Shown piece by piece: positions 7,246 to 58,134 of a stretch of DNA of 64,000 nucleotides. The stretch's first letter is position 1. Every line of letters starts with the position of its first letter. The position numbers and the translations under genes were made by a program. Source of the DNA: a virus; IMG/VR virus record IMGVR_UViG_3300009104_001476. One strand, written 5' to 3'. The notes beneath the pieces were generated by a model, which worked only from the letters and a program-made list of their open reading frames with translations, did not search any database and was not told where the DNA came from.

Positions 7246-7333
7246 GGGGAAGTGGTGGAATTGGCAGACACAACAGACTTAAAATCTGTCGAACATTGAG
7301 TTCGTGCGGGTTCAAGTCCCGCCTTCCCTACCA
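7246..7333 (+). tRNA. trnL: tRNA-Leu (anticodon UAA)
   Basis: Acceptor stem GGGGAAG/CTTCCCT, D-loop GG, anticodon arm ACAGA-CTTAAAA-TCTGT, long variable arm, GGTTCAAGTCC T-arm, encoded CCA. Confidence 0.96.
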
Positions 7334-34807: not shown

Positions 34808-35740
34808 ATGATCTGTAAAGTCTGTAATAAAGAATTCGAAACAGAACGCCAACTTCATGCTCACTTAAAAGCTCATAAGTTGACGATGATAGAATATTAT
34901 CAACAATACTACCCCCGTTACGATCTATACGATAAAAAAATAATAAAATTTAAAAATAAAACTCAATACTTAAATACTGATTTTAACTCTAGGACTAATC
35001 TACGCATGTGGATGAAAGATAAGCCAGAAAATGAAGCTAAAGAATATTGCGCTTCTCTAATGAAAAAAAGAATAGAAAAAAAGGGCATAGAGTACGCTCC
35101 AACTCAAGTAGAGCTAAGAACTATTTTAAGTCCCCCTATTCAGTATCATGATAAGCTATTCGGATCTTACAACCAGTTCTGTGAGGGTTTAGGCCTAAAG
35201 ACTAAATTTGTATCTCCGGGAGAAATAGTCGAAGGCTCAAAATGGAAAGACGCTAAATACAAAATCTACGTAGATACGAGAGAGCAAAGACCTTTAAAAT
35301 TTAAAAATCGTCAAATAGAAATCAAAACTCTAAAGTTTGGAGATTACGCTTTTAGTAACAAGGAGGCGACCTGTAACTGTTATATAGAAAGAAAAAACTT
35401 GTCGGATTTCATAGGCACGATAAGTGGCGGCTACGAACGTTTTATAAATGAAATAGAAAGAGCCAAGGAAGCGGACGCTTATTTAGTTGTCCTAGTAGAA
35501 GACACCTTAACGAACTCGTTAAGCTTCCCATTCTTAAGGCATATATCTAAAAAAATTAAAGCTACTCCTGAATTTATTTTTAATAGAGTCAGAAGTCTTA
35601 CTCAGACTTATCCGCATATCCAATTTTTATTTGTTAAAGGCCGGGTAGAGTCCTCGAGGGTTATAGAAAAAATATTTACTAGCGGGTGCGTTCATGAAAA
35701 GATCGATCTCCAACTAGCATACGATACTAAGAAGTTATAA
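34808..35740 (+). CDS. C2H2 zinc finger plus ERCC4/XPF-family nuclease
   Basis: CKVC-x12-H-x3-H; VDTREQ, GDY and IERK motifs. Confidence 0.8.
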   Translation: MICKVCNKEFETERQLHAHLKAHKLTMIEYYQQYYPRYDLYDKKIIKFKNKTQYLNTDFNSRTNLRMWMKDKPENEAKEYCASLMKKRIEKKGIEYAPTQVELRTILSPPIQYHDKLFGSYNQFCEGLGLKTKFVSPGEIVEGSKWKDAKYKIYVDTREQRPLKFKNRQIEIKTLKFGDYAFSNKEATCNCYIERKNLSDFIGTISGGYERFINEIERAKEADAYLVVLVEDTLTNSLSFPFLRHISKKIKATPEFIFNRVRSLTQTYPHIQFLFVKGRVESSRVIEKIFTSGCVHEKIDLQLAYDTKKL

Positions 35741-37569
35741 TGTGGTACGCTCCAGAAAAATACAAAAAAGATATACTTGATGTAAATCAAGAGCTTCTTA
35801 AGTTGAAAGGTGATCTAGGAGAAAAAGAGGCCAAGATTACTCTTGTAAAGTTTCTAAAAGCTAACATAGGTTTTACCACGGAGCTTTTATCAGGAATTAA
35901 ATTAGCGCCCTATCAAGAGGTTACTCTTAAAGGATTATTTAATAGGAACTTTAGCATGTGTGTCTGGGGCCGTGGTTGTGGCAAATCTTTTATAGCTGCT
36001 GTTTACTGTTTTTTGCAATGTATTTTTGAGCCGGGAACGAAAATAATGATCGCTGGACCAACCTTTAGGACAGCTAGGAACATATTTACCAATTTAGAAA
36101 AGATGGTAGATTCGAAAGGCGCTGAATTGTTACGGCAAGCGTTTCATATACAACCCTCTAAAAGAAACGACCAATATGAATGGCAAATTAATGGAGGAAC
36201 GATAACAGCAATTCCGTTAAGCGGAGAAAAAATTCGTGGTTTTCGTGCAAACGTTTTGCTTTTAGACGAGTTCTTACTTCTTAGTGAAGACATAGTCAAA
36301 ACTGTTCTTATGCCATTCTTGGTAGCTCCACAGAACATGAAGGAAAGAATTGAAATCAGAGAAATAGAAGACAGACTAATTAAAGAAGGAGCGATGAAAG
36401 AAGAAGACCGAATGGTGTTCGAGAACGATTCTAAAATGATAGCTCTGTCTTCCGCTAGTTACACCTTCGAAAATTTATATAAAACCTACAAAGAGTGGGT
36501 GGAAAAAATTTACTCTAAAGAAGAGTTGGATGCGAGCTATTTTATATCTCAAATGGGATACGAAGCTTTACCGGAAGAGATGATAGACACAACCATTATC
36601 GAAGAAGCTCAAAACGGAGGACAAAGTCATTCAAGTTTTCAACGAGAATATTGTGCTCAGTTCACAGATGGCAGCGATTCTTACTTTAGTGCTAAAAAAA
36701 TGTTTGAGTGCACGGTCCCTGACGGAGATAAGCCAACCACTTTACTTAAAGGTAAACGAGATAAAAAATATATATTAGGAATTGATCCATCTTTTTCTAA
36801 TAGTCCCAGTTCTGATTATTTTGCGATGTCTATTCTAGAACTTGATGATGAAAGAAAAGACGGAACCTTGGTACACAGTTATGCCGTAGCTGGTGGAGAC
36901 TTAAAAGATCATATAAGATATCTTTATTATGTTATTAAAAACTTCGATATAGAAATGATTTGTATTGATAATGCCGGTTATCAATTTATCGACTCCGCTA
37001 ACGAATCTGAGTTATTTTTAAAAGACAACATAGACCTTAAATTCTTCGACTTTAATAGTGAAAAAGATGGCGATAATTATGCTATGGAATTAAAAAGAGC
37101 TAGAAGGGCTTACAATAAACAAAATGGAGCCATATGCTTTAAACAGGTATTCACTTCTGAGTTTATTCGAAAAGCCAACGAACACTTACAAGCGTGTATA
37201 GACCATAAAAAAATATGGTTCGCTTCCAAAACCTCTGCTCATGGCGACGTCTTTACAGGAGCGACAAAACAAAAGGTGGACGTTAGGCTAGTTTCGGAAG
37301 AGAACGTGGGCACATTTATAGAAACTCAAGACGACTTAATCTATCAGACAAAAAGGCAATGTGCTCTCGTAGAGGTTAAAACTACCGCAAGAGGTACGCA
37401 AACTTTCGATTTACCTCATCATCTGAAGCGTAGCACTTCTGCCTCAAGAGCTAGAAAAGATAATTATACCACATTAATGCTTGCAAATTGGGCTTTAAAG
37501 TCTTATTATGATATGATGGAAATAAATTTAGAAGACCAAGACGCTACTTTCGTCCCGAGGATGATATAA
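35740..37569 (+). CDS. terL: terminase large subunit
   Basis: Walker A GRGCGKS, Walker B RGFRANVLLLDE, ALSSA coupling motif, RNase H-like GIDPS...SDY. Confidence 0.88.
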   Translation: MWYAPEKYKKDILDVNQELLKLKGDLGEKEAKITLVKFLKANIGFTTELLSGIKLAPYQEVTLKGLFNRNFSMCVWGRGCGKSFIAAVYCFLQCIFEPGTKIMIAGPTFRTARNIFTNLEKMVDSKGAELLRQAFHIQPSKRNDQYEWQINGGTITAIPLSGEKIRGFRANVLLLDEFLLLSEDIVKTVLMPFLVAPQNMKERIEIREIEDRLIKEGAMKEEDRMVFENDSKMIALSSASYTFENLYKTYKEWVEKIYSKEELDASYFISQMGYEALPEEMIDTTIIEEAQNGGQSHSSFQREYCAQFTDGSDSYFSAKKMFECTVPDGDKPTTLLKGKRDKKYILGIDPSFSNSPSSDYFAMSILELDDERKDGTLVHSYAVAGGDLKDHIRYLYYVIKNFDIEMICIDNAGYQFIDSANESELFLKDNIDLKFFDFNSEKDGDNYAMELKRARRAYNKQNGAICFKQVFTSEFIRKANEHLQACIDHKKIWFASKTSAHGDVFTGATKQKVDVRLVSEENVGTFIETQDDLIYQTKRQCALVEVKTTARGTQTFDLPHHLKRSTSASRARKDNYTTLMLANWALKSYYDMMEINLEDQDATFVPRMI

Positions 37570-37648
37570 ATTCTCATTTAAGGTTATTTTAGCTCATTTT
37601 TTTAAATTTTAGTTTTTTTTTATTCGTCAGTGTAATATTATCTAAGTT

Positions 37649-39592
37649 ATGCCAGCTAAAAAGACCCAAACTACGAACGCGAAACAAGGGAAACCTTCTA
37701 TAGAAAAAAAGGCTTCTAGGAGGAAAAAGACCTCAAACGAAAGTACCCCCTTGATGACATCCTCTGCTTCTGCTAGGCAAGACACTGGGGTAAGAAGAAA
37801 CAAATCTGGCTCTATAGTCCGAACGGACCGGTTTAGGAACATTGACGAAGGAATGGTTCCCTTTAACTATTCTCTGGGCCCGTATGGAAAATCAGCAACA
37901 AATTTAGACGTAAGAGATACAGTCATCTTATGCCAAAAAGCTTATTATAATTTTGCTGTATTTAGAAACACTATCGATCTTATGACAGAGCTTTCTGTAA
38001 GCGAAGTTTATCTTACGGGTGGAAGTAAGAAGTCTAGGGAATTTTTTAACGCTTTTTTCAAGAAAGTTAATTTGAAAAGTCTACTTGATCGATTTTTCAG
38101 AGAGTATTATAGGTCAGGGAACGTTTTTTTATATAAGTTCGAAAAAGATATTACTAAAGCGGATGCGAAAAGACTGACTCAGACTTACGCTAACACTCTA
38201 GGCAAAATTTCAATTCCTGTTAGGTATACCTTGTTGAATCCCGCAGATATACAAGTAAGCGGTAATATCTCTTTCGCTACTGGAAAATTTTATAAAGTAT
38301 TAAACTCTTATGAAATGATGAGGTTAAAGAACCCTCAGACAGAAGAAGACTACGAGGTTTTAGAAAGTCTTCCTAAAGAAACTAAAGAGCAATTAAATAA
38401 TCAGTCCAAGCAATCCAACTCTATTCTAACCTTACCTTTGGACCCGAATAAAGTTTCAGCAGTTTTTTATAAGAAGCAAGATTATGAGCCTTTCGGAGTT
38501 CCGATGGGTTACCCAGTTTTAGAAGACATAAACTGGAAAGCTGAATTAAAAAAAATGGACATGGCTCTGACTCGGACTATGCAACAAATGATTTTACTTG
38601 TCACCATGGGTACCGAGCCCGACAAAGGAGGAGTGAACCAAAAGAATTTAGCGGCCATGCAGAGCCTTTTCGAAAATGAATCAATAGGCCGGGTTCTGAT
38701 TGCAGATTATACGACAAAAGCAGAATTCGTTATCCCTAAGATTGCAGACTTACTAGACCCTAAAAAATATGAAGTGGTAGATAGAGATATACAAATGGGT
38801 TTAAATAATGTTTTAGTAGGGGGAGAAAAATTCGCTAACCAAAGCGCAAGAATCGATGTGTTTATAGCTAGACTAACCCAAGCGAGAGAAACTTTTATTA
38901 ACGACTTCTTAATGCCTGAAATTAAATCTATAGCTAAAAAATTAGGCTTAAGAAATTATCCTACTCCAATTTTTGAAGACATTAAATTGAAAGACCCTTA
39001 TAACAACAATAGAATCTATAGTCGTTTAATTGAGTTAGGTATTTTAACACCAGAAGAAGGTTTAGAGGCTTTGCAGAGCGGTAGATTACCGACTAAAGAA
39101 GAATCTCTTGAGTCTCAAAAAGAATATGTAGACTACAAAGAGGAAGGCTTGTTCGCGCCTATAGCACCAAATCAAGACGCTGAAGAAGGCTCTAGTCAAA
39201 CAGGCAGTGGTAGACCCAACGGGACGACCAGCCCTCAAAACACAAAAACTATCAAACCGATAGGTGAAGGAGTGGGAAAGGAAATTTTTTCTCTTGAGAA
39301 GGTTAAAGATAACATGATTTTAGCCCAAAAATTAAATAATAAAATTGAGACAGAGCTTAAGAAAAAACACGAGCTTAAAGAATTGTCTCGAGAGCAATTA
39401 AATATAGCTTCTCAAATAGCAGACATAATCATAGTGAACGAAGAGCCTAAGTCTTGGATAAGAAAAGCTAAGAGCTATTTAAATAAGCCCGTAGATAAAA
39501 ATTTAGATAAGGTCAAAGAGGTTCAAAAGCTTGCTGCTGACCATCAGGTTGATGAATATTTAGCGGGTATATTATATGTTAGTAAAAAGTAA
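37649..39592 (+). CDS. portal protein (probable)
   Basis: 647 aa directly after terL; AVFRNTID, REYYRSGNVF and PFGVP patterns. Confidence 0.72.
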   Translation: MPAKKTQTTNAKQGKPSIEKKASRRKKTSNESTPLMTSSASARQDTGVRRNKSGSIVRTDRFRNIDEGMVPFNYSLGPYGKSATNLDVRDTVILCQKAYYNFAVFRNTIDLMTELSVSEVYLTGGSKKSREFFNAFFKKVNLKSLLDRFFREYYRSGNVFLYKFEKDITKADAKRLTQTYANTLGKISIPVRYTLLNPADIQVSGNISFATGKFYKVLNSYEMMRLKNPQTEEDYEVLESLPKETKEQLNNQSKQSNSILTLPLDPNKVSAVFYKKQDYEPFGVPMGYPVLEDINWKAELKKMDMALTRTMQQMILLVTMGTEPDKGGVNQKNLAAMQSLFENESIGRVLIADYTTKAEFVIPKIADLLDPKKYEVVDRDIQMGLNNVLVGGEKFANQSARIDVFIARLTQARETFINDFLMPEIKSIAKKLGLRNYPTPIFEDIKLKDPYNNNRIYSRLIELGILTPEEGLEALQSGRLPTKEESLESQKEYVDYKEEGLFAPIAPNQDAEEGSSQTGSGRPNGTTSPQNTKTIKPIGEGVGKEIFSLEKVKDNMILAQKLNNKIETELKKKHELKELSREQLNIASQIADIIIVNEEPKSWIRKAKSYLNKPVDKNLDKVKEVQKLAADHQVDEYLAGILYVSKK

Positions 39593-39594
39593 TT

Positions 39595-40692
39595 ATGTTG
39601 CGAAACCGAATCATTCACCAGAATGAGCTTCTGTATGTTGGACACGCTTTAGAATCCGGTCAAACATATTCTGCCCCTATCGTTACTAATCTAGATAAAG
39701 TCCAGTCTATCTCTTACGAATTCGCTTATGGTAGGTCTGAAGTTTCTGTAGTTGGAGAATCTAGCCCCGTTGATAGGCCCGTTAATTCTAGCCCTATAAC
39801 AAATTTAAATATCGATTATTTAATTGGCTCTTTCCATAATGAAAAACACTTAGGAATGAAAATTACGCCTCAAGGTTTTAGTTCTAGTTTTGCTTTATTA
39901 AGCGGTTTAGCAGACGAAACAGATAGAAGTAACGATAGGAGAAATCTATATTTAGTTACAAGCGAACAGGGCGTAGATGTGATGGAGGGGCAAACCGGGA
40001 ACATAAGCGGGGTGCTATGTTTTCACGATTGTCAAATAAATAGTTACAATGCTAGTTTTACAGTAGGCGACTTACCTAGGGCTTCAATATCTTTGCAAGG
40101 GGTAAACGCAAGTTACTTTAGTTCGGGCTCAGGTTTAGATGTAAAAGTCTTGGATAGAAAAACTGCGGACACGGCAGATACTATAGATGTTTCCATACCC
40201 ATGTCAGGGAACCAGATTTCTTTTTCAGAGACTTTTATTCCCGGAGAGATTAATGTAGAATTCTATAACTCTGACGGTAGCCCTATAGCGACCACTGGAT
40301 TTACTCCGATCACAAACCAAAAAGTCCAATCTTTTGATTTAAGTTTTTCCATTAATAGAAATGAAATTAATTTAGTTGATCATAAGATTAATTATGACAG
40401 ATTGTTGTCTACCCCAATTATAGGAACAAGCTCTATGTCAATTATAGATCACGGAACTCAATCTGGAGACTTATCCGACGTTCTTAATAACTCTGAAGAG
40501 TATAAGATAATAACTAAAATAATGCATAACTCTGCTCATAAAATGAGCTTTACTCTCAATAAAGTAAAAATAGATAAAATAAGTTACTCTCACTCTATAG
40601 GCGACAAGAAAATGATTAACCTTGCCCTCTCTTTCCCTATTGACCCGTTCAATGAAAACAAAAGCCTTAATTTCAGTGGTGCTTATTATTAG
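39595..40692 (+). CDS. structural protein, possibly tail-tube-like with two repeated beta domains
   Basis: Two related segments, VQSISYE...R and VQSFDLS...R. Confidence 0.45.
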   Translation: MLRNRIIHQNELLYVGHALESGQTYSAPIVTNLDKVQSISYEFAYGRSEVSVVGESSPVDRPVNSSPITNLNIDYLIGSFHNEKHLGMKITPQGFSSSFALLSGLADETDRSNDRRNLYLVTSEQGVDVMEGQTGNISGVLCFHDCQINSYNASFTVGDLPRASISLQGVNASYFSSGSGLDVKVLDRKTADTADTIDVSIPMSGNQISFSETFIPGEINVEFYNSDGSPIATTGFTPITNQKVQSFDLSFSINRNEINLVDHKINYDRLLSTPIIGTSSMSIIDHGTQSGDLSDVLNNSEEYKIITKIMHNSAHKMSFTLNKVKIDKISYSHSIGDKKMINLALSFPIDPFNENKSLNFSGAYY

Positions 40693-40703
40693 TGTAAAGA
40701 CTA

Positions 40704-41867
40704 ATGGTAATCACCATGAATGAAGAAAGCCAAAATAAAACAACACCTTTAAACGAATATCAATACGGCTCCCCGGACTTAATTGTGCCTGATATTCCTA
40801 TGCCTGCTCCTCCGGAACCTAAGAAAGAAGTCGTAGATAAAGTCGATGGAGCTTTTCGGTTTGCTTTTGTCGGAGCGGGACAAGGCGGCTCTAGGATTGC
40901 AGAGATTTTTCACAAACTAGGCTATCGAAAAATAGCCGTCATGAATACCGCTCAGCAAGATTTAAATTTAATAAAAGTAGAACATAAACTATGCATAGGT
41001 GACGGTGGTGCGGGCAAAGAGCCTTCTGTAGCAAGAAAAAAGTTTGATGAAAGAAAAGAAGACGTTTTTGATTTTCTGAGAGATTCTTTAGGAGAAGGCG
41101 TTGATAGATATTTTATTTGTGCGGGCGCTGGAGGGGGAACGGGCGCGGGGACGGTGATGCCTTTAATTGAAACTGCTTCAGAATTGCAAAAATCTCAAGG
41201 GTCTTCAACCGATAAAGTAGGAGTAATTTTAGCTTTACCAAAAGTCTCAGAAGGGACAAAAGTTAATGCTAATGCTTATCAGGTTTTAGAAGAAGTATAC
41301 AGCGCTGTAGAAAGCGGCTTAGTCTCTCCTTTGGTTGTTGTCGACAACGAAAAAATAAATAAACTTTACCCCGGTCTTGGCGTGGCTCCGTTTTGGCAAA
41401 CAGCTAATATGAGTATAGCTGGACTATTCCATTTGTTCAATAATACTGCTACTAAAGACAGTTCTTTTTCTACTTTTGACACAAACGACTACAAACAGGT
41501 TCTCGATTCAGGCATGATAGTTTTCGGAGCTACCCAAATAATGCAATGGGAAAATCCAAGCGATATAGCTCAAGCAGTTAGAGACAACTTAAAAACTAAT
41601 GTCCTTTCGGGAGGTGTAGACTTATCTACTGGCACTAGCGCAGGAGTAATCATGATAGGGGGGAACGAGGTCTTAAATAACGTTCCTCAGGATCACCTAG
41701 ATAAAGCATTTGAACAATTTACTAGAATACTAGCAAATGGTAGCGTGGTGCATAGAGGTATCTATAGCGGTAACAAAGATAATCTAACAGCTTATACCAT
41801 GATTGGGGGCTTAGGTAAACCTCATGAGAAGCTGGAAGAACTTAAAAAACATGGAGGGCTTTTATAA
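40704..41867 (+). CDS. tubulin/FtsZ-family GTPase
   Basis: GAGQGGSRIA, GDGGAG, signature GAGGGTGAGT, DNE, and T7-like loop FDTND. Confidence 0.9.
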   Translation: MVITMNEESQNKTTPLNEYQYGSPDLIVPDIPMPAPPEPKKEVVDKVDGAFRFAFVGAGQGGSRIAEIFHKLGYRKIAVMNTAQQDLNLIKVEHKLCIGDGGAGKEPSVARKKFDERKEDVFDFLRDSLGEGVDRYFICAGAGGGTGAGTVMPLIETASELQKSQGSSTDKVGVILALPKVSEGTKVNANAYQVLEEVYSAVESGLVSPLVVVDNEKINKLYPGLGVAPFWQTANMSIAGLFHLFNNTATKDSSFSTFDTNDYKQVLDSGMIVFGATQIMQWENPSDIAQAVRDNLKTNVLSGGVDLSTGTSAGVIMIGGNEVLNNVPQDHLDKAFEQFTRILANGSVVHRGIYSGNKDNLTAYTMIGGLGKPHEKLEELKKHGGLL

Positions 41868-41868
41868 T

Positions 41869-42300
41869 ATGTCAATCGAATTGATAACAATGGCTGCTGG
41901 AGGAATAACCGGCTTTATCTTCAGATACTTAGCTGAACGAGCAAAAGAGAGAGCAGAGATTTATAAAATGGCCTTAGGCATTAAAAAAGCCCAAGACGAT
42001 TCTGCTGATAGAGCGGCTAAGAGGGTTCCAATAGATGCTGGTAAGTGGGTTAGAAGAGCTATAGTTTGCGCTATACTATTTGCAGTTGTTTTAGCTCCAT
42101 TCATTTTATCTTTATTAGGTCATTCTACAATCGTGCAGATAGAGACAGAAGCTCCAACTTGGTTCTTCGGTCTATTTGGGGGAGGCACGGAAGTTTTATT
42201 TGTAGAGATGAAAGGTTACTTAATGGTCCCAGAAGTGAGGCAAGCTTTGACAGCGATCATAGGATTTTATTTTGGGAACGCAGCAGCTAAAACGAGGTGA
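41869..42300 (+). CDS. membrane protein (holin-like)
   Basis: 2-3 hydrophobic helices ending AIIGFYFG. Confidence 0.55.
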   Translation: MSIELITMAAGGITGFIFRYLAERAKERAEIYKMALGIKKAQDDSADRAAKRVPIDAGKWVRRAIVCAILFAVVLAPFILSLLGHSTIVQIETEAPTWFFGLFGGGTEVLFVEMKGYLMVPEVRQALTAIIGFYFGNAAAKTR

Positions 42301-42328
42301 AATTAAACTGTTATTCGGGCTTTCTATT

Positions 42329-43024
42329 ATGAAGCTATTTATTCTATCTTTACTTGTGCTCATCGGTTGTTTGTCGGGTTGTAAAACAGGAGGATCTTGG
42401 GTTAAGTCCGCCTCTCCAAATATTAAGGTTATCTCGCCAAGCGATTTAATAAAGAACCCGAACGGAACTTTCCGTTTGAAAGATGGCAATACCCTTCCCG
42501 AAAAAGAAAAAGTTACTTCGAAAGAAATACCTCCGCCTAAAAAAGTCAACAAGCCTCAGGTAATTAACGAGCCTCAAAAAACAGAAAATAAAATTGTTAG
42601 CGAAAAAGTTAAGCTTCAGGGCGCGAAATCTAAACCTACCGCTCCAGCTAACTCTAGCGTAAAACCCCAACCTTTTCCTTCTGACCAAGTCAAAGCCTCC
42701 GGAAGCGAGACTGCTTTTGAGCCAACCGTAACTGACATAAGGATGAATATTGTGCCTAAAAATACAGAGCCTAAAGGAAAAGTTGACAAATCAATCGATA
42801 CCGTTATTATAGAGGAAGAAAAAATGAAAATAGATTGGGCAGGATTATTTATGTTTTATTTCATGGCAATTATGATATTGATCATGAGTTGGATGGTTTA
42901 CGACTTAATAAAAGACTTTTTGTACAATAAGAAAAGGAATAAAGAAATAAACCCTTTTAAAAAAGAAGAAGCTAAAAAGCCCCTCTATGGCGCAAAAGGT
43001 CGCAAAAGACGTCGAAAAGAATAA
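42329..43024 (+). CDS. lipoprotein with Pro/Lys linker and C-terminal TM helix
   Basis: LSG-C lipobox plus a C-terminal TM segment, a topology reminiscent of unimolecular spanins. Confidence 0.5.
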   Translation: MKLFILSLLVLIGCLSGCKTGGSWVKSASPNIKVISPSDLIKNPNGTFRLKDGNTLPEKEKVTSKEIPPPKKVNKPQVINEPQKTENKIVSEKVKLQGAKSKPTAPANSSVKPQPFPSDQVKASGSETAFEPTVTDIRMNIVPKNTEPKGKVDKSIDTVIIEEEKMKIDWAGLFMFYFMAIMILIMSWMVYDLIKDFLYNKKRNKEINPFKKEEAKKPLYGAKGRKRRRKE

Positions 43025-43111
43025 AAATCATTTCTTATCGTTTCCGAGAGTCGTAGTTTTATTTTACGGCTCTTTTTTTTATGGTGTAATAAAAAAATAG
43101 GATTATTTGTT

Positions 43112-43495
43112 ATGAAATATTTAAAAGAAGCGCCAAGCCACATCTGGACGTTCATACATAAACATACTAACGTAGTTGTCACCGTTTTAATTTGTTTGTG
43201 TTTTTTCTTCTTCTATAAAATATCTAACGACACGAAGCATTACGAAAAATTACATAATCTTCAAATGGAAAACGTAATGCTGTCCAATGAGTTAGGACAA
43301 GCGATTGACATGATCACTGAACAAGGAAGACATGTAAATAAAATAGAAGAGAGTCTAGAGCTGAGAACGCAGCAATTAAATGAAGCTGCAGCGTTTGTAA
43401 ATTTTCTAATCGAGAAGTTAAAGAGTTTAGGAGAATGGCCCCCTAAAGAGGACCCATCCCCAAAACCCGGTAATCCTACCAGAAGCGAAGCTTAA
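43112..43495 (+). CDS. membrane-anchored coiled-coil protein
   Basis: TM helix followed by a heptad-rich region. Confidence 0.6.
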   Translation: MKYLKEAPSHIWTFIHKHTNVVVTVLICLCFFFFYKISNDTKHYEKLHNLQMENVMLSNELGQAIDMITEQGRHVNKIEESLELRTQQLNEAAAFVNFLIEKLKSLGEWPPKEDPSPKPGNPTRSEA

Positions 43496-43507
43496 GGAAG
43501 GATAACC

Positions 43508-43777
43508 ATGAAAGAAAATGTACGCTTGTATACCAAGCAAAATAGGCATTGGTGGTCTCATGAGAAAAATACCAAATGGGCCATACAAGATAAAGAAGGG
43601 TATTGGTGGCTTGTCGGTGGTTCTGAATTTCCAGAAAAGAAAATAGAAGAAAAAGAAATGAAATGCGGACTTCCTCCAACCTTCGATTTAAAGACTCTTG
43701 TTTGGAGAATATTTCTAGGGGCGCTTATCGGAACTTTCATCGGTATAGTCATAGGTTTAATTATCCTTTCATTATGA
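43508..43777 (+). CDS. membrane protein
   Basis: C-terminal TM helix. Confidence 0.6.
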   Translation: MKENVRLYTKQNRHWWSHEKNTKWAIQDKEGYWWLVGGSEFPEKKIEEKEMKCGLPPTFDLKTLVWRIFLGALIGTFIGIVIGLIILSL

Positions 43778-44295
43778 GTAAATACATAATATACTTCATA
43801 ATAATTTCTTATTTATCTTTATTTAATATAGGATGTTCTCTTTTTCGTCCAGACTCTTTAAGTAGAGAAGATGGCTACTACACTCAACATCTCCAATCTT
43901 GTGGCCCTAGGGCTGCTCAAAAAGCTATTCAGAATTTAAAGAAGCACGGAGTTTGGGATGAGAGATATATAACCGTTTTAGAGGTAGGCAAAAAAATACA
44001 AAATAATGGAGGTAACGCTTCTAGGCTCTTTTTATCTTTGTTCAACCATAGAACCATGCAAATAACCTTTCCTTACGAGATGGAAAGATTTTTTGAGAAG
44101 GAAGGGTTTAAAGTGTCTCGGGTTAAGTCTTTAAAAGGGTTAGACCCAGAAACAGATACAGCCTTAGTCCTAGTAAGGGGTTCTGTCCTCTCAAAATATT
44201 GGCATTGGGTGTGTTTCCCTACGGATCATTTTATTGAGGACTATTTCGGGAAAGAGACTAAAATCCATATAATTCTGCTGGTTGAAAAAAAGTAA
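43774..44295 (+). CDS. peptidase C39-like lipoprotein
   Basis: QSCGPRA (Q-x-C) and HWV motifs. Confidence 0.6.
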   Translation: MSKYIIYFIIISYLSLFNIGCSLFRPDSLSREDGYYTQHLQSCGPRAAQKAIQNLKKHGVWDERYITVLEVGKKIQNNGGNASRLFLSLFNHRTMQITFPYEMERFFEKEGFKVSRVKSLKGLDPETDTALVLVRGSVLSKYWHWVCFPTDHFIEDYFGKETKIHIILLVEKK

Positions 44296-44341
44296 AATTT
44301 TTCTTGTCATTTTTTCATTGGGAGCTATAATGTTCCTGAAT

Positions 44342-44554
44342 ATGAAAAGAATATATATATTAATTGCTGTGTTGTCTATCTTTACGCTAGGCACGGGCTG
44401 TAGTACAACTTGCAAGCTTCCTTCTGTAACTTTAGGAGGAGCAGCAAACCAAAAAGCGCTTATTGGCGCTTCTGCGGGAAAAAAGGGCTTAAATTTAACT
44501 GCACCGTTAGTTAATGTTGACGTCCCTTTCCCTTCTGCTTCTGTTGACAAATAA
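44342..44554 (+). CDS. small lipoprotein
   Basis: LGTG-C lipobox; terminator at about 44582-44620. Confidence 0.6.
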   Translation: MKRIYILIAVLSIFTLGTGCSTTCKLPSVTLGGAANQKALIGASAGKKGLNLTAPLVNVDVPFPSASVDK

Positions 44555-44669
44555 TCCAAAAGACTAGAAGCTCTATTATATAACCTCGCACCTGAGACAT
44601 GGTGTGAGGTTTTTTTTATTTTTTTTATAATTTTAAATATCTTACCGTATAATTGTCGTGTATTTATAG

Positions 44670-45215
44670 GTGGGGGAAACCCTAGTCTTTATGGATTGCT
44701 TAATATTTGAAAACTCAGGTTTAAATGATAATCATGAGTCTCCCGAGGCAGACGGCCGAGCTCGTCAGCAGGAGGCTATTGATTTTTCTAATTTATTGAT
44801 TGGCCTTTTTGAGGACGTTTGCGAGGACGTCGAAGAGGTCTCTATAGAAGATTTAAAAAAGGTCTATGTCAAAGCTGCTCATAACTGCGAGACTGACAAA
44901 TGCTCGAACATTAACCTTTGGGCTTTAGCTAGAATCAATATGTTTATTAGAATGAAATCTCAGAAAGAAATCAAGCAAACTTCTGAGTCTTCTTTGAAGC
45001 AACCTATATCTAAGATTACCGAGATTCAATTAGAGTCTCCTTTTTTTTATGAAGATTTACAGTCTATCGATATCACAGCAAAATGGGAGCCTTCTCCTGA
45101 AGACTTTTCTTTAGCAGAGCAGTTCATAAATAAGTATGATTTAAAGTTTACCTTCTCAAGTGTTGATGATCTGTATATCGAAGAATACAAACCTTTGGAG
45201 CTAGAGCTCGAGTAA
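44670..45215 (+). CDS. hypothetical protein
   Basis: ORF; the start codon is uncertain. Confidence 0.55.
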   Translation: MGETLVFMDCLIFENSGLNDNHESPEADGRARQQEAIDFSNLLIGLFEDVCEDVEEVSIEDLKKVYVKAAHNCETDKCSNINLWALARINMFIRMKSQKEIKQTSESSLKQPISKITEIQLESPFFYEDLQSIDITAKWEPSPEDFSLAEQFINKYDLKFTFSSVDDLYIEEYKPLELELE

Positions 45216-45239
45216 AAGCGGTGTAATTATTATTACGTT

Positions 45240-46757
45240 ATGAAAGATTTTAAATTTAAGACAATTTTTAGTTCTGAGGTCAAGCCTTTGGTCTCTGAGG
45301 AGAAAGATGCTTATTTGGCTTTAGCTGCATTGTCTAACATCGGAGACTTAGTCCCAGACGTAGACACTAATAAAAATATAGATTTACTACCCGTAGCATT
45401 TAACGCTTTTGTAGCTAACAGAGTTAATAAAAATCATGACGTTATCAACACTGAGGCTGCTTTATCCATAGCTCATCATTTCGTAAATAAACCTATTAAT
45501 ATTGAACACAGTAGAGAGAAGGTTATTGGTACTATCCTAACAGCAGGTTATAGTGAGTTCGGAACAGACAAGCCTCTTACCGAAGAAGAGGTCAAAGATA
45601 TGAAGGGCCCCTTCAACGTAACCTTGGGTGGGGTTATTTGGAAAACTGTTAATGAGGAGGTTGCGGCTTTGATTGAAGATTCTAGTGATCCTACTAGCGA
45701 AAATTATCTTAAGGTGTCGGCTAGTTGGGAGCTAGGTTTTTCTGATTACCAATTAGTAATGATGAGCTCCGAAGATAAGAATATAGAGAATGGCGAATTT
45801 ATAACGAATCCAAATATTATCGAAGAGTTGGAAAAAAATTTAAAGAGTTTTGGTGGCGACGGTCTGACCGAAGATGGGAAATTCATATATAGACATGTAA
45901 TTGGCGAGATTGTTCCGCTAGGTATTGGTCTAACTGAAAGCCCAGCTGCTGAAGTAAAGGGCATTGTCACCAAAAGGGCAGAAGCCAAAAATGTTGTGGA
46001 AGAGGAAAAGTCTCCCGTGGAGATCGGATCCGAAAGTATTTCACATGAAAAAGAAAAAAATGTAAAAAATAAATACATATCGAGAGATAAAATCATGAAA
46101 ATTAATAGCATTAATGACATCACGGAAGATTCCATGAAAGAAATGTCTGCTTCTGCTATATCGGATTTCATCCGAAAAGAGCTCGAGGACGCCTCCGAGA
46201 AATTTTCTGCTGAGAAGCAGGGAGTGGAAACTGCTCTTAAGGACGCCGAGGAGAAGCACGAGACTCTTTCAAAGGATCACGAAGAACTAAAAAATAATAT
46301 GAAAACTATCCAAGACGAACTAGAAGTTCTTAAAGCTGAAAAGCTTGAGAAAGAACGTCAGGAAGCTTTCAATACCCGCATGGCCTCTTTAGACGAAGAG
46401 TACGAACTTAGCGATGAAGATCGTGAAGTGATCGCTTCGGACATTAAGGACATGAATGAAGAGACTTTTGAGGCTTATTCTAACAAGATGGCCGTTTTAC
46501 TTTCTGCAAAGAATCGTAAGGCTATTGCTGAAGAAGCTTCTCAGAAAGCTGAAGAAGAAGCGAAAGCTTCCGAAGCAGAAGAAAAAAATCTAGCTGAGGC
46601 TGAAACCGCTACCGAAGAGGTAGTCGAAGAAGTTTTAGAAGAAACTGAGCTTAAAACTGAGGTGCCCGTTAGCACTGCTGCCAACGAGCCGACCGTATAC
46701 GAAAAGTATAAGGCCGCGTTCGATATGGACGGTTTTGAGTTTAAATCACATCGTTAA
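45240..46757 (+). CDS. prohead protease fused to coiled-coil scaffold (probable)
   Basis: NKPINIEH (His) and VSASWEL (Ser); acidic coiled-coil C-half; lies upstream of the capsid genes. Confidence 0.75.
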   Translation: MKDFKFKTIFSSEVKPLVSEEKDAYLALAALSNIGDLVPDVDTNKNIDLLPVAFNAFVANRVNKNHDVINTEAALSIAHHFVNKPINIEHSREKVIGTILTAGYSEFGTDKPLTEEEVKDMKGPFNVTLGGVIWKTVNEEVAALIEDSSDPTSENYLKVSASWELGFSDYQLVMMSSEDKNIENGEFITNPNIIEELEKNLKSFGGDGLTEDGKFIYRHVIGEIVPLGIGLTESPAAEVKGIVTKRAEAKNVVEEEKSPVEIGSESISHEKEKNVKNKYISRDKIMKINSINDITEDSMKEMSASAISDFIRKELEDASEKFSAEKQGVETALKDAEEKHETLSKDHEELKNNMKTIQDELEVLKAEKLEKERQEAFNTRMASLDEEYELSDEDREVIASDIKDMNEETFEAYSNKMAVLLSAKNRKAIAEEASQKAEEEAKASEAEEKNLAEAETATEEVVEEVLEETELKTEVPVSTAANEPTVYEKYKAAFDMDGFEFKSHR

Positions 46758-46799
46758 AATTTTATGTTTAACTAAAATTATTAAAGGAAAAAAAATATT

Positions 46800-47363
46800 A
46801 TGGCACAATTATTACCATTTAGAGACTACGACGAGCACGACGTTATCAACCTTTTTGCGTTCGATTACGCCGGGACAACTGTCACTAAGGGCGCTCTTGT
46901 GAAGATTAAATCTAGTGCTGGGTGGAATGTCGCTCAGGAACTTGATCAGTCTAATAGCATGGTTGGCTTTAGCTTAAACAATGTAGTGAGCGATCGCTAT
47001 GCTGTGCAAGCTAGAGTGGATCTTGCTGGTTCAGGCGATAATCCTCTCGGGATGATGCTCTATGATGTAGCAGAAACTGATGAAAATGGCGAAAAGCTTA
47101 TTTATAACCCACGTAAAGCTGCCGAGATGCAGACTACCGTTAGCGGTCAAGCAGTACCAATTCTTACCAAGGGCATCGTCCTTGTTAATGGAGTTGACGG
47201 AACTGTTGCCGAAGGCGGATTAGCCTACTGCGGAACCGGTTCAGCAGACGGTGGAATCACTGCCACCGCTGGTGGAACTAAAAAGAAGATCGGTCGGTTC
47301 TTAGGAACTACCGGAGCGAATGGTGAGGTTCTGCTTCACTTAGACGTCAATATCGATCTCTAA
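46800..47363 (+). CDS. head decoration/cement protein (probable)
   Basis: Position before the capsid gene; Gly-rich beta pattern. Confidence 0.6.
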   Translation: MAQLLPFRDYDEHDVINLFAFDYAGTTVTKGALVKIKSSAGWNVAQELDQSNSMVGFSLNNVVSDRYAVQARVDLAGSGDNPLGMMLYDVAETDENGEKLIYNPRKAAEMQTTVSGQAVPILTKGIVLVNGVDGTVAEGGLAYCGTGSADGGITATAGGTKKKIGRFLGTTGANGEVLLHLDVNIDL

Positions 47364-47390
47364 TATCATTATTATAAAGGAATTAATCTA

Positions 47391-48524
47391 ATGAAATTAA
47401 AATTAAAAAACACACCTGAACAGGTTGAATTAGTTAAGGCTCTTGGTTCTAAGGATGCGGCTGTGGCAAGGGAAGCTCAAGAAGCTTTCGCTGCCTTTAT
47501 CGGTCCTGTTATCCAAAAGGTTATCAAGCAGTCTGCTACCGCTGGTTTAGTCTACACAGATGTCTCTTATGATGAAGACGATAGTCCAAGCTACCCGTTA
47601 GACTTGTACTATGATCAATCCGCTGGTCATGTGACTGTATGGTCACAAAGCATGGCTGGAGGTTTACCGACCTCGCTGACTGAGGGCGTTAAAGAGCTTA
47701 AAATCTCTACTTACAGACTTGACGCAGCTATTTCTTGGCTTAAGAAGTATGCTCGCAGAGCTCGTTTGGACGTAGTTAGTAAAGCTCTTGAGCGTATGTC
47801 TCAGGAAGTTTTGTTGAAGCAAGAGCGTAACGCTTGGGCTGTCATTTTGAAAGCTCTAGGCAACTCTAGTTCAACTAACTCTGTTGCAGCTAACAATGGT
47901 CACATTCTAGCTACCAATCAAGAAAGCAAGTTCTCTGTTGCTGACATCAGTCGCCTGATGACTCACATGAAGAGAATTAGCGCTTCTTTTGCTAATGGTA
48001 CTGCTGATCCTTCTGACTCTTTTGGTCTTACTGACCTATATGTGAGTCCTGAGGTTCTTGAGCAGATCCGTGGCTTCGCTTACAATCCGCTGAACACTGA
48101 AGGTTCTTCCGTTGGTGTTATGGGTCTTCCCGATGGCGTACGTGAAGGAGTATGGCGTGGTGCAGGAATGAGCGAGATCTATGGCGTGGCTATTCATGAT
48201 CTAGTGGAGCTTGGCTCGAGCAAGAAGTATAATACCTTGTTCAGCACCTTCGCTCAGAACGGAATCGCCCACACGTCTGGTACCGCAATTGGTGCTCAAA
48301 GCACTAACTTTGCTGACGCCGCTGACGAGATCTTGATCGGTATCGACGCATCTAAGGAAGCCTTCATTCGCCCTGTGGCAATGAATGCCGACAATGGTGC
48401 AACCTTTACCGCACTTCCCGACGACCAATTCGCCCAAAGAGCCGACAAGGTTGGCTTCTATGGCGCTATGGAAGAGGGTCGTGTTTGCATCGATGCGAGA
48501 GCTTGTGCAGGCTTGGTCATGTAA
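47391..48524 (+). CDS. major capsid protein (probable)
   Basis: 377 aa, third gene of the protease-decoration-capsid order, followed by a strong terminator. Confidence 0.78.
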   Translation: MKLKLKNTPEQVELVKALGSKDAAVAREAQEAFAAFIGPVIQKVIKQSATAGLVYTDVSYDEDDSPSYPLDLYYDQSAGHVTVWSQSMAGGLPTSLTEGVKELKISTYRLDAAISWLKKYARRARLDVVSKALERMSQEVLLKQERNAWAVILKALGNSSSTNSVAANNGHILATNQESKFSVADISRLMTHMKRISASFANGTADPSDSFGLTDLYVSPEVLEQIRGFAYNPLNTEGSSVGVMGLPDGVREGVWRGAGMSEIYGVAIHDLVELGSSKKYNTLFSTFAQNGIAHTSGTAIGAQSTNFADAADEILIGIDASKEAFIRPVAMNADNGATFTALPDDQFAQRADKVGFYGAMEEGRVCIDARACAGLVM

Positions 48525-48545
48525 GTTGACAACATTCTCAAACAC

Positions 48546-48578
48546 ACTCGGGGCTTCGGCCCCGAGTTTTTTTTTATT
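48546..48578 (+). terminator. intrinsic terminator
   Basis: ACTCGGGC-TTCG-GCCCGAGT followed by a long T-run. Confidence 0.9.
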
Positions 48579-48633
48579 TTAGGGCTTGGCCCTGTATTAT
48601 GTGTAAAATATTGAGTAAGGTATAAGGTTTTTA

Positions 48634-50076
48634 ATGATGAAATATAGCGTTCCCAGTCATGACGAAGAATATCCAAAACGGCAAGAATCTAGGCAAATAG
48701 GTGTCCCCGGACAAGAGAAAGTAGAGGTTCTTGCTGATGGAACGATAAAGGCTAAAGCTTTTGTAGATAAAGACCATCAAGATCTAGACTATAATTTTGA
48801 CGAAGAAAAACAAGCTCCCTTTTTTCAAAAAAATATAAACGACTCCTTAAAAATCAAATTTGTTCCAAAATCATTTAACGTCTATTATAAGGCTACATGT
48901 AAAAAGATTTTTTCTATAATTAATAGTTTCGGAAAATTCATTAACAGGGTTAAAGAAATTCCTCTCGCTGGGATGGGGCGATACAAACACGCTCATCGTC
49001 TAATACGTAGGGGCATTAAAAAACTTCTTAAAGACAATAAAAGATATATTTTTACAAAAAACGATGTGGGGCGTGGCCCAACAGCAATCCCTTACGTAGA
49101 AAGTAAAACTTTTGGACCTTACAATTATCCAGTTAAATTAAAAGCTAGCTCTGATATAGATTTTATAAGAGACATCATATTAATTAAGACTGGAGGTTTT
49201 ACCGATAGCTCTTCTCCCAACTATGACTCCACGCAAACAGAGGTCGTTTACGTTAGCCCTCATATAGAAAAAAGTTTTTCCGGAGTTTTCCATACCAGTA
49301 CTGGTATCAATTTAAATGGAGACAATAGCATCCAAACTGGACTCGGTTTGGATGATGGCATATCTAGTGGAGTGAGCATTAATCTTTTGTCTTCCGAAGA
49401 TTTTTCAATCCCTAGCGGCTCTTATTTAAGCGGTAGTGGAGCTTACAATCATTATATTTCTAGCGATGCAAATTCTGCTCCTTCTCTACATGTAGAAACA
49501 AACGCTCCATCAAACACCTTATTTAAAGAGTATAACCTAAGTAAGAGAAATTTAAGATTTTCTTCTGATCATTGGGATGGAGTAATTCCAAGCGGAGCTT
49601 GGTTCTCTATAGAGTCTTGGTGTTATAACGATAAATACGTAGGGTTTGATGGTCAAATCGATATAGAACCCGTAGATCAATCCTTAGGGGTTACAATGAA
49701 CGAAACCGTGATAGGTAAAGCAGAAGATTCTCGAGGTTACGCAGAAGCTTATTCAACAGCTGAAAAAAAAGCAGAAAAAGTTTTCTATAAAAAGTTAAAT
49801 AAAAAACTTATGGATAACGGTTTAAAAAACAAAAAGTCAAGATACAAAAAATACGAATACATGATTTACAAAAGCGCTCAAGGTTACTTCGATAAAGAGG
49901 ACCATCAACAGACAAAAGATTACGATTTAAAAAAATCAGCAAACCCGACAGGAGAGAGCTTTGTTTACGTAACGCAAGATCAAAAAACCTCCAGTCACAC
50001 GAATACGAACCGACCAGCTGGCGGTAGCTCTAGTGGTAGCTCCAGTAGTAACTCTGGCGGCAACTCAGGTTATTAA
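48634..50076 (+). CDS. hypothetical virion-associated protein
   Basis: Long ORF in the structural block. Confidence 0.6.
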   Translation: MMKYSVPSHDEEYPKRQESRQIGVPGQEKVEVLADGTIKAKAFVDKDHQDLDYNFDEEKQAPFFQKNINDSLKIKFVPKSFNVYYKATCKKIFSIINSFGKFINRVKEIPLAGMGRYKHAHRLIRRGIKKLLKDNKRYIFTKNDVGRGPTAIPYVESKTFGPYNYPVKLKASSDIDFIRDIILIKTGGFTDSSSPNYDSTQTEVVYVSPHIEKSFSGVFHTSTGINLNGDNSIQTGLGLDDGISSGVSINLLSSEDFSIPSGSYLSGSGAYNHYISSDANSAPSLHVETNAPSNTLFKEYNLSKRNLRFSSDHWDGVIPSGAWFSIESWCYNDKYVGFDGQIDIEPVDQSLGVTMNETVIGKAEDSRGYAEAYSTAEKKAEKVFYKKLNKKLMDNGLKNKKSRYKKYEYMIYKSAQGYFDKEDHQQTKDYDLKKSANPTGESFVYVTQDQKTSSHTNTNRPAGGSSSGSSSSNSGGNSGY

Positions 50077-50087
50077 GAGGACTTTAG

Positions 50088-51719
50088 ATGAAGTATTATA
50101 ATAAAATCAATAGAAATTTAAAAGTGAGAGCTAGACTCTATTTTAATCAATTGTCTCACAATAGAGTTTTAGATACTACCCCAAGATATTTCGTAAAGAT
50201 AGACTCTTTAAAATCTTTAGAAAGAATCGGGTTCACTCAAAAATCTGAGAATAATCAATACGTTAGGTACGCTTCGAATTTTTATGGAGCTAAGAAAGAA
50301 GAATATTTAAGCCAAAAACAGGTTGAGAACATTTTATTAGATTTAAACTCGAAAGCTCCTTACGGTTATAATACTGGAATATCTGGAAGCTTACAAGCCT
50401 ATAATGATGAAGTAAAATTTAATTCATCTTACCAATCATTTTATAATAATTTTTGGAACGATAATTTAAGTAGGGTTACAGCAGACGCTTCTGAGCAATA
50501 TCCATATATGGAAGTAGAATTAAACGAAGTGATTAAAAGTAAATTTTTAGTAAAAGAGCCCGCTTCCTATGCTGATTATTCACCGCCAGTATCAGAAGAT
50601 GACGCTTCGTATTATAATCCTAACCTTTCAATAGGGACATATTCTTGTGACGAAAATACCAATATAGTAGTTACGACAGGGGTAAGCCCTTTCAGTTTTT
50701 ATGGTTTTGTCGTAGACGGAATACACAGAACTTCTTTAAATTTAGGAAGAAATAAACAATATACATTTACTAATACTAATTTATTTCATCAAGAATCATG
50801 TCAAACTGGAGTTTTGCCTTTTAGGATCTCAGAGGGGTCTTCTGACGGGGTTTTAAACGGCGGGAGTACTTATACCTCTGGAGTAAACGTTAGTGGCGCG
50901 GGTACCTTAACAGGGGCAGAAGTGCTGGTCCTTACTACTGATGAAAATACTCCAAATTCATTAGGTTATCATTCTCCTTTATATCCTGATATGGGAGCAA
51001 ATATAGCTATCTTAGATGGTTGTAGTGGGGTTGCAGGAAGCGTTACTCATCCTTCTTTCACTCCTTACGCAATTTGGAATAGCGGGACGGTGCCCTCAAC
51101 GGATTCTTCTAAAAGGACTGTAGCTTCAACCGGTAATCCAAATCATTGTACGCACAATAGTTCTAGAGGGTGGACTGGTTATCCAAACATGGATTCTACT
51201 CATGGGATATCAGGACAATCCTATGAATGGGAAATACCTTTAAACCCAGTCCTTCCAGCGAGCGGTCAAAATTCAAGAGTTCCGCTAGGCGCTATAGGAG
51301 TTGCGCTCAACGGCTTACCGTTACATAACGCTTACGATCTTTCTGGGAACGATTTAGTTAATTCAGAATTTAAGGATAATTGTAATGGTTTTGTTAGTTT
51401 CGGTAAGTATATGTATCGTCAAGATCCCATATGTACATATGTTGATGTTTCCGGAGAGCATTCTCCTATAGTTGGTTATGCTTTTGATGGTTATCCTATT
51501 TACGGATCGAGAGACGAAAGCGGAATACATATCGATGAAGACGATTTAGACATGTTCCATGGTCATAATCAAGAAGGTAGGGGTTACCATTATCATGTAA
51601 CAACGGGAGCTCCTTATGTTTTAGGCGCATATTATAAAGGGGTTCCAACTTCTGGTAATTTTGAGGATACGAATTCTCCTGCTATTACTGGATATCCTAT
51701 TAAATATAGAAGCCTTTAA
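50088..51719 (+). CDS. YHYH-domain protein with cupredoxin-like module
   Basis: GAIGVALNG, DNCNG, HSPIVGYAFDGYPIYG and YHYH motifs. Confidence 0.8.
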   Translation: MKYYNKINRNLKVRARLYFNQLSHNRVLDTTPRYFVKIDSLKSLERIGFTQKSENNQYVRYASNFYGAKKEEYLSQKQVENILLDLNSKAPYGYNTGISGSLQAYNDEVKFNSSYQSFYNNFWNDNLSRVTADASEQYPYMEVELNEVIKSKFLVKEPASYADYSPPVSEDDASYYNPNLSIGTYSCDENTNIVVTTGVSPFSFYGFVVDGIHRTSLNLGRNKQYTFTNTNLFHQESCQTGVLPFRISEGSSDGVLNGGSTYTSGVNVSGAGTLTGAEVLVLTTDENTPNSLGYHSPLYPDMGANIAILDGCSGVAGSVTHPSFTPYAIWNSGTVPSTDSSKRTVASTGNPNHCTHNSSRGWTGYPNMDSTHGISGQSYEWEIPLNPVLPASGQNSRVPLGAIGVALNGLPLHNAYDLSGNDLVNSEFKDNCNGFVSFGKYMYRQDPICTYVDVSGEHSPIVGYAFDGYPIYGSRDESGIHIDEDDLDMFHGHNQEGRGYHYHVTTGAPYVLGAYYKGVPTSGNFEDTNSPAITGYPIKYRSL

Positions 51720-57340: not shown

Positions 57341-57379
57341 TTTTAGACTTTTAGATATTGAAGTGTATAATATTTTATA

Positions 57380-57598
57380 GGTTGGCCACATTGGGTGAAT
57401 TCGGTGGAACTCTCTTTTTAGAGACAATACCGAGCCAAGCCAGAGGGGGTATTGATACTCTGGAAGGTGTAGAGACTAGGCGGTGAGACCCGACAATAAC
57501 CCGCCCACGAGCGCCCAACGCTATCTAGTGAAGATATAGTCCGAACTATACGGTGACGTATAGAAGCTGCAATTAAAAAACCAGCGATAACATAAATG
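57380..57598 (+). ncRNA. group I intron/ribozyme core (IA-like, ORF-less), permuted relative to its 5' splice site
   Basis: P3 TTGGGTG/CGCCCAA; P4 TTCGGT/ACCGAG; P6; P7 GACTA/TAGTC; J8/7 AAGATA; P7.1 GGCGG/CCGCC; P8; P9 CTATAC/GTATAG; omega-G at 57598. Confidence 0.9.
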
Positions 57599-57674
57599 GA
57601 CCGTGGAGTTGAGCCAGTGTACAAATCTGTGCTAATGGCCCGTGCAGAGGTGTAACTCAAACTTCATGTCGGCT
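57599..57674 (+). ncRNA. 76 nt structured exon, predicted circular RNA product
   Basis: Lies between omega-G 57598 and the U.G wobble U57674; folds by hand into a rod. Confidence 0.7.
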
Positions 57675-57685
57675 GACAATTAACG

Positions 57686-57724
57686 GTCGTTAAGGCTTGA
57701 AAGAGCTTTAACGGCTTATTTTTT
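57686..57724 (+). terminator. 13 bp GAAA hairpin plus U-tract closing the ribozyme transcript
   Basis: GTCGTTAAGGCTT-GAAA-GAGCTTTAACGGC-TTATTTTTT. Confidence 0.8.
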
Positions 57725-57756
57725 GGAAAAACATAAAATTAAAAATATAATATAAT

Positions 57757-58134
57757 ATGAAGAAAAAGAGCGCAAAAAAGTCTAAAAAAAACACCAAGCT
57801 AAAGTCTTTATCTCAGACTCACGGTAAACAAGAGACAGATTTTCAACCAACCACTTTGGACCAAATTTGGGGAGATGATGGGGTGGCTAAATATGGGACT
57901 TTAAACGAAGAAGAGTATAATAGGCAAATCCAAAACATGCATTTTTCGGACCTAAGAACTCATGCAGCAGATATTGGCTTAATTCCTGTGGATGATAGAG
58001 AGCTGCTTACTAAAAGAGTTTTATCTGAATTTAGAAGGCATCGTAATAATTATACGGTTCCGGCCGATGACGTCAATGGGCCAGAGCCAGAGATTAGCGA
58101 AAAAGCTAGAAAGATATTAGAAGAAGGTAAATAA
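57757..58134 (+). CDS. hypothetical protein
   Basis: ORF in the structural block. Confidence 0.65.
   Translation: MKKKSAKKSKKNTKLKSLSQTHGKQETDFQPTTLDQIWGDDGVAKYGTLNEEEYNRQIQNMHFSDLRTHAADIGLIPVDDRELLTKRVLSEFRRHRNNYTVPADDVNGPEPEISEKARKILEEGK

Follow-up and report, generated by a model that had tools for sequence, protein, structure and literature searches.

A gap between two open reading frames (ORFs) in the window, the 64,000-nt stretch of viral DNA analysed here, probably holds a group I ribozyme gene that stands by itself, is circularly permuted in loop L1 and closes a 76-nt RNA circle. The parts lie in permuted order, with omega-G at 57598, a payload at 57599-57674 and the 5' splice site after 57674, and this order is kept in 29 relatives. 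Cleavage and ring closure are predicted from established group I chemistry, and the transcript ends, like any function proposed for the ring, are predictions as well. Group I ribozymes in nature are known almost only as self-removing introns, and, if the proposed reading is true, the circle would be the first in phages or bacteria that is formed naturally from an exon by a group I ribozyme.

The catalytic core and its surroundings

A covariance-model search with group I models, proposed as a check in the preliminary description of this DNA, matched the Rfam group I intron model RF00028 to 57341-57563 on the + strand (76.5 bits, E 1e-17, as compared to a curated threshold of 50). This is the sole match to the model in the whole 142-kb viral record, and the threshold was also exceeded by 11 relatives. 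The P3 and P7 assignments made earlier were found at the positions given for them and the J8/7 and P9 named earlier are present as well, while the 5' strand of P4, previously placed at 57400-05, proved to be one base off and is corrected to 57401-06. The core is supported by the RF00028 score and covarying helices, and its elements were placed using the sequence together with the Rfam alignment:

57391..57585 (+): group I catalytic core
57391-97/57512-18 (+): P3
57401-06/57428-33 (+): P4
57411-15/57420-24 (+): P5
57440-45/57458-63 (+): P6
57474-78/57537-41 (+): P7, GACUA with UAGUC
57479-83/57501-05 (+): P7.1-type insert
57519-22/57527-30 (+): P8, short
57531-36 (+): J8/7, AAGAUA
57546-51/57558-63 (+): P9
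57566-69/57582-85 (+): P9.1

The core is IA-like, with a P7.1 insert and without P2. A lariat-capping (GIR1) identity was rejected, as the core is of the standard splicing type with an omega-G context and the GIR1 family is absent from the window's Rfam gathering-level matches.

Relatives were retrieved from viral contigs using DNA patterns from the catalytic core that were blind to the leader and to everything past P9. Of the 160 contigs obtained, 13 (one a duplicate) are 75-80% identical to the window over approximately 57366-57629, and a search of metagenome contigs with a leader-plus-P3/P4 pattern added further members. The complete relatives comprise 29 distinct sequences from marine and freshwater viral and metagenome contigs. 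A quick core tree, built on a short alignment without branch supports, places the GGCC-leader forms in one clade. No relatives were found in a protein search with the C-terminus of the upstream 1871-aa ORF, and the phage GenBank collection contained only conventional group I introns and no close relative of the element. The genome collection returned just one chance match (a Planctomycetia gene) and one truncated match (a Pseudomonadales bin), so no host can be assigned.

In an alignment of 13 sequences, 96.5% of the cells in the core helices are paired and 22 pairs have changed on both sides, as compared to approximately 37% paired in slid controls; none of 500 shuffles was as good, although the relatives share ancestry and shuffle tests on family alignments therefore overstate independence. 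Among these otherwise freely divergent relatives, every consensus block of the catalytic core (J3/4-P4, P4'-P6, J6/7-P7 and J8/7-P7') is invariant. An inactive intron relic, or a structured RNA that now acts without catalysis, for example as a scaffold or by binding protein, would fit the observation that no interrupted gene depends on splicing, but is very unlikely given this invariance and the retention of the guide, the wobble pair and omega-G.

The complete core lies in a gap, as had been described: the 1871-aa upstream ORF stops at 57340, the next ORF begins at 57757, and there is no coding continuity across the element. In the relatives, likewise, no gene is interrupted by the ribozyme element, which in neither case splits a gene whose two exons would be joined into a linear RNA. 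Signals for transcription flank the element on both sides:

57344..57371 (+): predicted sigma-70-like promoter, TAGACT-16 nt-TATAAT, by consensus match
57675..57726 (+): predicted released 3' tail with intrinsic terminator, hairpin stem 57685-57716 and then a T run

Both had been noted before, and both are present. The promoter-like site is a consensus match with a counterpart at the same place in the relatives, and from it a transcript start is predicted near 57378, 2-3 nt ahead of the guide. Homology among the relatives begins at the guide (NNNN-GGCC-NYA), which P3 follows directly, and upstream of it only a -35/-10-like pair is common. Upstream sequence is long enough to judge in 28 members, window included, and in 26 of these a large ORF has its stop codon 39-90 nt ahead of the guide; in the relatives, a promoter-like spacer of approximately 45 nt is all that lies between the two. 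The best promoter score in this spacer averages 9.39 out of 12, versus 7.62 in shuffles, and reaches at least 10 in 15 of 28 relatives. On the downstream side, L175, L185 and L204, the closest relatives of the window, carry a short conserved GGGCGUGGAGAUACACGAAAG-like block between splice site and terminator, in the first ∼45 nt after GGCU, which is missing from the window.

The same upstream spacer is where a conventional group I intron in the 3' UTR of the 1871-aa gene would have to find its P1 and P2 (57345-57379). Rfam does put model positions 1-50 on 57341-57390, and a pairing of ACUUU 57346-50 with GAAGU 57360-64 is possible there, as is a P2-like UAUAA/UUAUA hairpin. However, this reading is unsupported because the Rfam P1 and P2 (57345-79) lie in an unconserved spacer and their alignment is full of non-pairs. 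Relatives have only promoter-like hexamers in common upstream of the guide, no omega-G or P10 partner suits that P1, and the best duplex between the upstream sequence and the guide is weak (-6.6 kcal/mol), leaving a conventional intron exceedingly improbable. A continuation of the upstream 1871-aa ORF across the element as a tail exon (the frame from 57599 reads DRGVEPVYKSVLMARAEV and then stops) was also rejected, because no P1 is possible at the end of the ORF, because the ORF, in keeping with those of the relatives, stops 39 nt ahead of the guide, and because the region changes by RNA-compensatory substitutions.

Guide, P1 and predicted splice sites

The permuted reading rests on a guide at the 5' end of the RNA and on two splice sites, both of which lie downstream of the core:

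57380..57387 (+): internal guide sequence at the RNA 5' end, GGCC invariant in all relatives
57384-87 (+): GGCC, the P1 3' strand with G57384 as the wobble G, P1 pairs 100% kept
57381-83 (+): P1 extension (alternatively P10, with 57380-83), from pairing in relatives
57388..57390 (+): three-nt joiner between P1 and P3, no P2, variable N-Y-A in relatives
57598 (+): predicted omega-G in a conserved block, last nt of the ribozyme part, with the 3' splice site between 57598 and 57599
57674..57675 (+): predicted 5' splice site after U57674 (U.G wobble with G57384), GGCU↓(A/G)A invariant (arrow, splice site)

The leader GGUUGGCCACAU is located at 57380-91 and the downstream strand that was proposed to pair with it, AUGUCGGCUGAC, at 57666-77. 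Within them, GGCC (57384-87) pairs with GGCU (57671-74), the U lying opposite the first G and the substrate strand being downstream of the core. The relatives found with core-only patterns contain the GGCC guide in 13 of 13 cases and the GGCU island in all 12 with enough sequence. The wobble of G57384 with U57674, which had been recognised as having splice-site geometry, is kept in every relative together with its neighbours; six pairs around it are 100% kept in the 13-sequence alignment, and the core guide/GGCU pairs are conserved without exception, where loss of the leader pairing in homologues would have counted against the original proposal.

That proposal comprised an 11-bp P1 between the leader and 57666-77. 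When 57378-91 was compared with the 139 nt after P9.1, the best duplex was indeed the one described (-12.8 kcal/mol), an energy also reached by 18% of shuffles. As the duplex is not beyond chance in this sequence alone, its reality rests on conservation in the relatives. The four core P1 pairs never vary, and what they provide is therefore conservation and no covariation. Covariation in the leader/3'-strand helix, which had been suggested as a test, was found beside them: the pair just 3' of the splice-site U is U-A in nine, U.G in three and C-G in one of the 13 sequences, and in the subfamily of L129, L134 and L147 the guide is GGUCC, with GGACU↓AAAC just before a start codon, which on its sequence amounts to an inserted compensating pair. 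From these comparisons the predicted P1 consists of four core pairs plus 2-3 extension pairs. The remainder of the 11-bp helix does not stand. Its distal part (AUGU with ACAU, bulged C57670) is better read as exon structure because 57666-70 pair in the rod stems described below, and the proposed partners of leader 57388-90 likewise pair better inside the exon rod. Small bacterial group I introns have a P1 of this size, 4 + 2-3 pairs.

At the other splice site, G57598 precedes GACC as described and lies within a GAUAACA-N(2-5)-UUG↓G block after P9.1 that is kept in all relatives, consistent with its predicted role as omega-G. The 75-79 nt segment that follows is closed by an invariant (U/C)CGGCU and then (A/G)A, and the GGCU↓RA end is also found in more distant members with longer segments. 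A 4-bp P10 between GGUU and GACC had been put forward as well. Its register gives the best pairing among slid registers and two of its pairs are constant (G.U or G-C, then A-U), but positions 3 and 4 are paired in only 16/29 and 20/29 members, respectively, and covariation is weak (permutation p about 0.05). P10 also has to share 57599-601 with the first exon stem, which, like the link of only 3 nt from P1 to P3, speaks against the proposed layout. In several members, only 5 nt separate the end of the -10 hexamer from the four guide nucleotides that precede GGCC, and a start ∼7 nt past that hexamer would leave only two of the four, which would fit the retention of only two P10 pairs.

The origin of the layout is suggested by conventional relatives of the same core class, L125, L132 and L135, whose introns split an ORF of >1000 codons that has a Mu-F domain and weakly matches single-subunit RNA polymerases. 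Their 5' exon ends in AAAGGCU↓ (GAAGGCU↓ in L132), and their guide, GGCCUUU (GGUCUUC in L132), lies 5 nt before P3. With the element in the window they have in common the GG(C/U)C guide, GGCU↓ as the splice-site sequence, the core blocks and the lack of P2. In contrast, their GGCU↓ belongs to a coding exon upstream of the core, and the two exons joined by splicing are those of a gene. As the guide has the same place in both groups and GGCU lies upstream in one and downstream in the other, the intron appears to have been opened in L1, in agreement with the permutation proposed earlier and with the order of guide, omega-G and GGCU kept in the 29 relatives. The L125 intron is on the - strand, with its exon end at reverse-complement position 3571, and L132 and L135 show an apparent second interruption 51 codons upstream.

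In the proposed reaction, transcription would start near 57378 and the RNA would begin with its own internal guide. GGCC (57384-87) and GGCU (57671-74) would form P1 with the U57674.G57384 wobble, and a free guanosine nucleotide would attack after U57674 and become the 5' end of the released tail, which would be a short terminator-bearing RNA in the window and, in about two thirds of the relatives, the message of the gene that follows. The 3'-OH of U57674 would then attack after omega-G57598, closing 57599-57674 into a 76-nt circle with the junction GGCU↓GACC, in which GGCU would become a four-base loop capping the covarying rod, and a linear ribozyme of approximately 221 nt (∼57378-57598) would be set free.

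An RNA that begins with its guide also resembles engineered trans-splicing ribozymes, a comparison made in PMC10457212, and the free guide could in principle cleave or splice other GGCU-bearing RNAs. However, a guide of 4-6 nt is almost unspecific and a perfectly placed cis target is kept in every relative, so that there is very little chance of a trans-acting ribozyme as compared to the self-targeting, permuted one.

The 76-nt exon and the lysine-rich gene

The segment between the predicted splice sites has an architecture of its own, with stems and pseudoknot identified by covariation:

57599..57674 (+): 76-nt exon, predicted circle, with covarying rod and pseudoknot
57599-601/57668-70 (+): exon rod stem 1
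57603-09/57661-67 (+): exon rod stem 2
57610-13/57656-59 (+): exon rod stem 3
57614-16 with 57636-38 (+): bulge-loop pseudoknot, CCA with UGG
57671-74 (+): GGCU at the exon end, the P1 5' strand, invariant in relatives

The exon is a conserved structured RNA. Its sequence evolves fast, yet its length is held to 75-79 nt in the 29 relatives and is mostly 76; besides the rod stems and the pseudoknot it has an apical hairpin. RNAalifold run on 13 exon sequences gave 21 pairs, 19 of them with compensatory changes. Across 30 sequences, the 14 pairs of the rod are 95.8% paired, with 13 changed on both sides, and the three pairs of the pseudoknot are 100% paired and all covary, a level reached by none of 500 shuffles, subject to the same shared ancestry. 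No tRNA-like circle was found when doubled circles were searched with aragorn, and the exon matches no known RNA family in Rfam. An endless reading frame on the circle was rejected because the circle is 76 nt long and holds UGA and UAA triplets.

Immediately downstream lies a gene that accompanies the element:

57757..58134 (+): conserved 125-aa lysine-rich gene, possibly SAP/HeH-like, with homologues downstream in relatives

The element is followed by this gene in the window and by a homologue in every one of the 28 relatives whose downstream ORF is complete; a further contig stops short of it. In members without a terminator, the first reaction step would free the message of the lysine-rich gene with a very short leader, while in the window and the 8 other members whose cleavage site is followed by a terminator, the gene comes with a separate promoter-like site. 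The ribozyme could thus be mainly a 5'-processing device that supplies the downstream mRNA with such a leader, its second step being inefficient or hydrolytic and the 76-nt RNA remaining linear or a by-product. This would suit the approximately 20 of 29 relatives in which the lysine-rich gene's ATG lies 2-39 nt past the cleavage site with no terminator, as well as the weak P10. It is nonetheless unlikely, since an intrinsic terminator stands right after the cleavage site in 9 of 29 members (the window and 8 others), where nothing useful would be freed, and since there is strong selection on the length, rod and pseudoknot of the exon, omega-G and its flank are conserved and a covarying stem holds the exon ends together. 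A unit that ends in a terminator right after the splice site can exist by itself, and this favours a view of the 76-nt RNA as a product in itself.

The 125-aa protein has no sequence match in Pfam or the PDB, and a search with it against viral contigs gave no matches; its family has an invariant LDQIWGDDG motif. The best fold matches of its AlphaFold2 model (mean pLDDT 74) are SAP-type helix-extended-helix domains, with weak E-values of ∼0.6, and they include, also with weak E-values, the RNA stem-loop-binding SAP domain of 3'hExo and the N-terminal RNA-binding domain of Rho. A SAP-like identity is therefore possible for the modelled protein, as a lead and not as a finding. More tentatively, these aquatic phages may devote a gene solely to making a functional non-coding RNA, a 76-nt circle that is closed by the ribozyme, is exonuclease-proof and has a conserved rod-plus-pseudoknot fold, and this RNA might be a ligand of the adjacent lysine-rich SAP-like protein or a host-defence decoy.

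Known systems and further observations

Conventional phage group I introns split terminase genes in Proteus phage 3H10_20 and Klebsiella phage vB_KpnP_ZH4; they have the same core blocks as the permuted element but join two gene exons. The c-di-GMP-controlled group I ribozyme of Clostridioides difficile lies in a non-coding 5' leader and determines by its reaction how the downstream message begins. Its parts are in the normal order, it is controlled by a riboswitch and it makes no exon circle. The order of parts in the window is that of the classic permuted intron-exon (PIE) constructs, which are man-made and carry long payloads. An engineered self-targeting circularising ribozyme, for which P1 alone sufficed in vitro (2023, PMC10457212), also has the same order, namely guide plus ribozyme, omega-G, payload and a target ending in U, and two transesterifications join its payload ends into a circle, as is predicted here. 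Unlike that man-made ribozyme with its long payloads, the phage element is natural, conserved in many uncultured phages and IA-like, with a P7.1 insert, no P2 and a 76-nt non-coding payload.

A natural permuted intron-exon precursor is known from the giant group I intron ND5-717 of mushroom-coral mitochondria, which is back-spliced via a circular exon RNA and, according to its authors, is the first such case to be reported from nature (Chi et al. 2019, PMC6545197); it is also the only natural permuted group I precursor cited by Roth et al. 2021 (PMC8637638). While the permuted order is common to both, the permutation of ND5-717 arises inside a protein-coding gene on a circular mitochondrial genome, where splicing puts the ND5 exons back together, whereas the phage element interrupts no gene and its payload is a small structured RNA. 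Circularly permuted bacterial group II introns are stand-alone, never interrupt an ORF and make small RNA circles (Roth et al. 2021, PMC8637638). The first two traits are shared with the phage element, for which small circles are predicted, but the group II introns belong to another ribozyme class with branching chemistry and have no sequence or structure relation to it. Full-text literature searches turned up no published phage or bacterial case of a permuted group I ribozyme that occurs naturally, in line with the preliminary description, which knew of no phage example; the layout as we read it from sequence was found in print only for the coral mitochondrial intron and laboratory constructs. 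If the permuted reading is true, phages would make small circular RNAs by group I chemistry and, in most relatives, trim the next message too, and nature would have reached the same design as the circular-RNA method of RNA engineers. The element would then offer a small scaffold of natural origin, approximately 220 nt long with a 4-bp P1 and without P2, and its family would form a new class of non-coding RNAs in phages.

Further subfamilies of the ribozyme class found in the window, likewise stand-alone and permuted in appearance, were observed in L129 (3814-4190, +), L134, L147, L163, L186, L189, L173 and L187. Their payloads are ∼95-230 nt long, and the terminal GGCU↓RA or GGACU↓AA is in each case closely followed by a start codon or a terminator. 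Downstream of the payload are unrelated genes in L129, L134, L147, L163, L186 and L189, and the lysine-rich gene in L173 and L187. The viral contig L129, which bears a permuted-type ribozyme, also has a tmRNA gene at 8096-8486 (+; RF00023, 109 bits).

Elsewhere in the window, the large structural-region ORFs tested at 35740-51719 (+) match no PHROG family, the large terminase excepted, and the phage lineage of the window is poorly represented in reference collections. A manA RNA motif (RF01745) is located at 16491-16669 (+), with 71.9 bits as compared to a threshold of 55.2. A tRNA gene with a long variable arm lies at 7246-7330 (+; 58.7 bits), and its anticodon loop, CUUAAAA in the Rfam alignment, suggests Leu(UAA).
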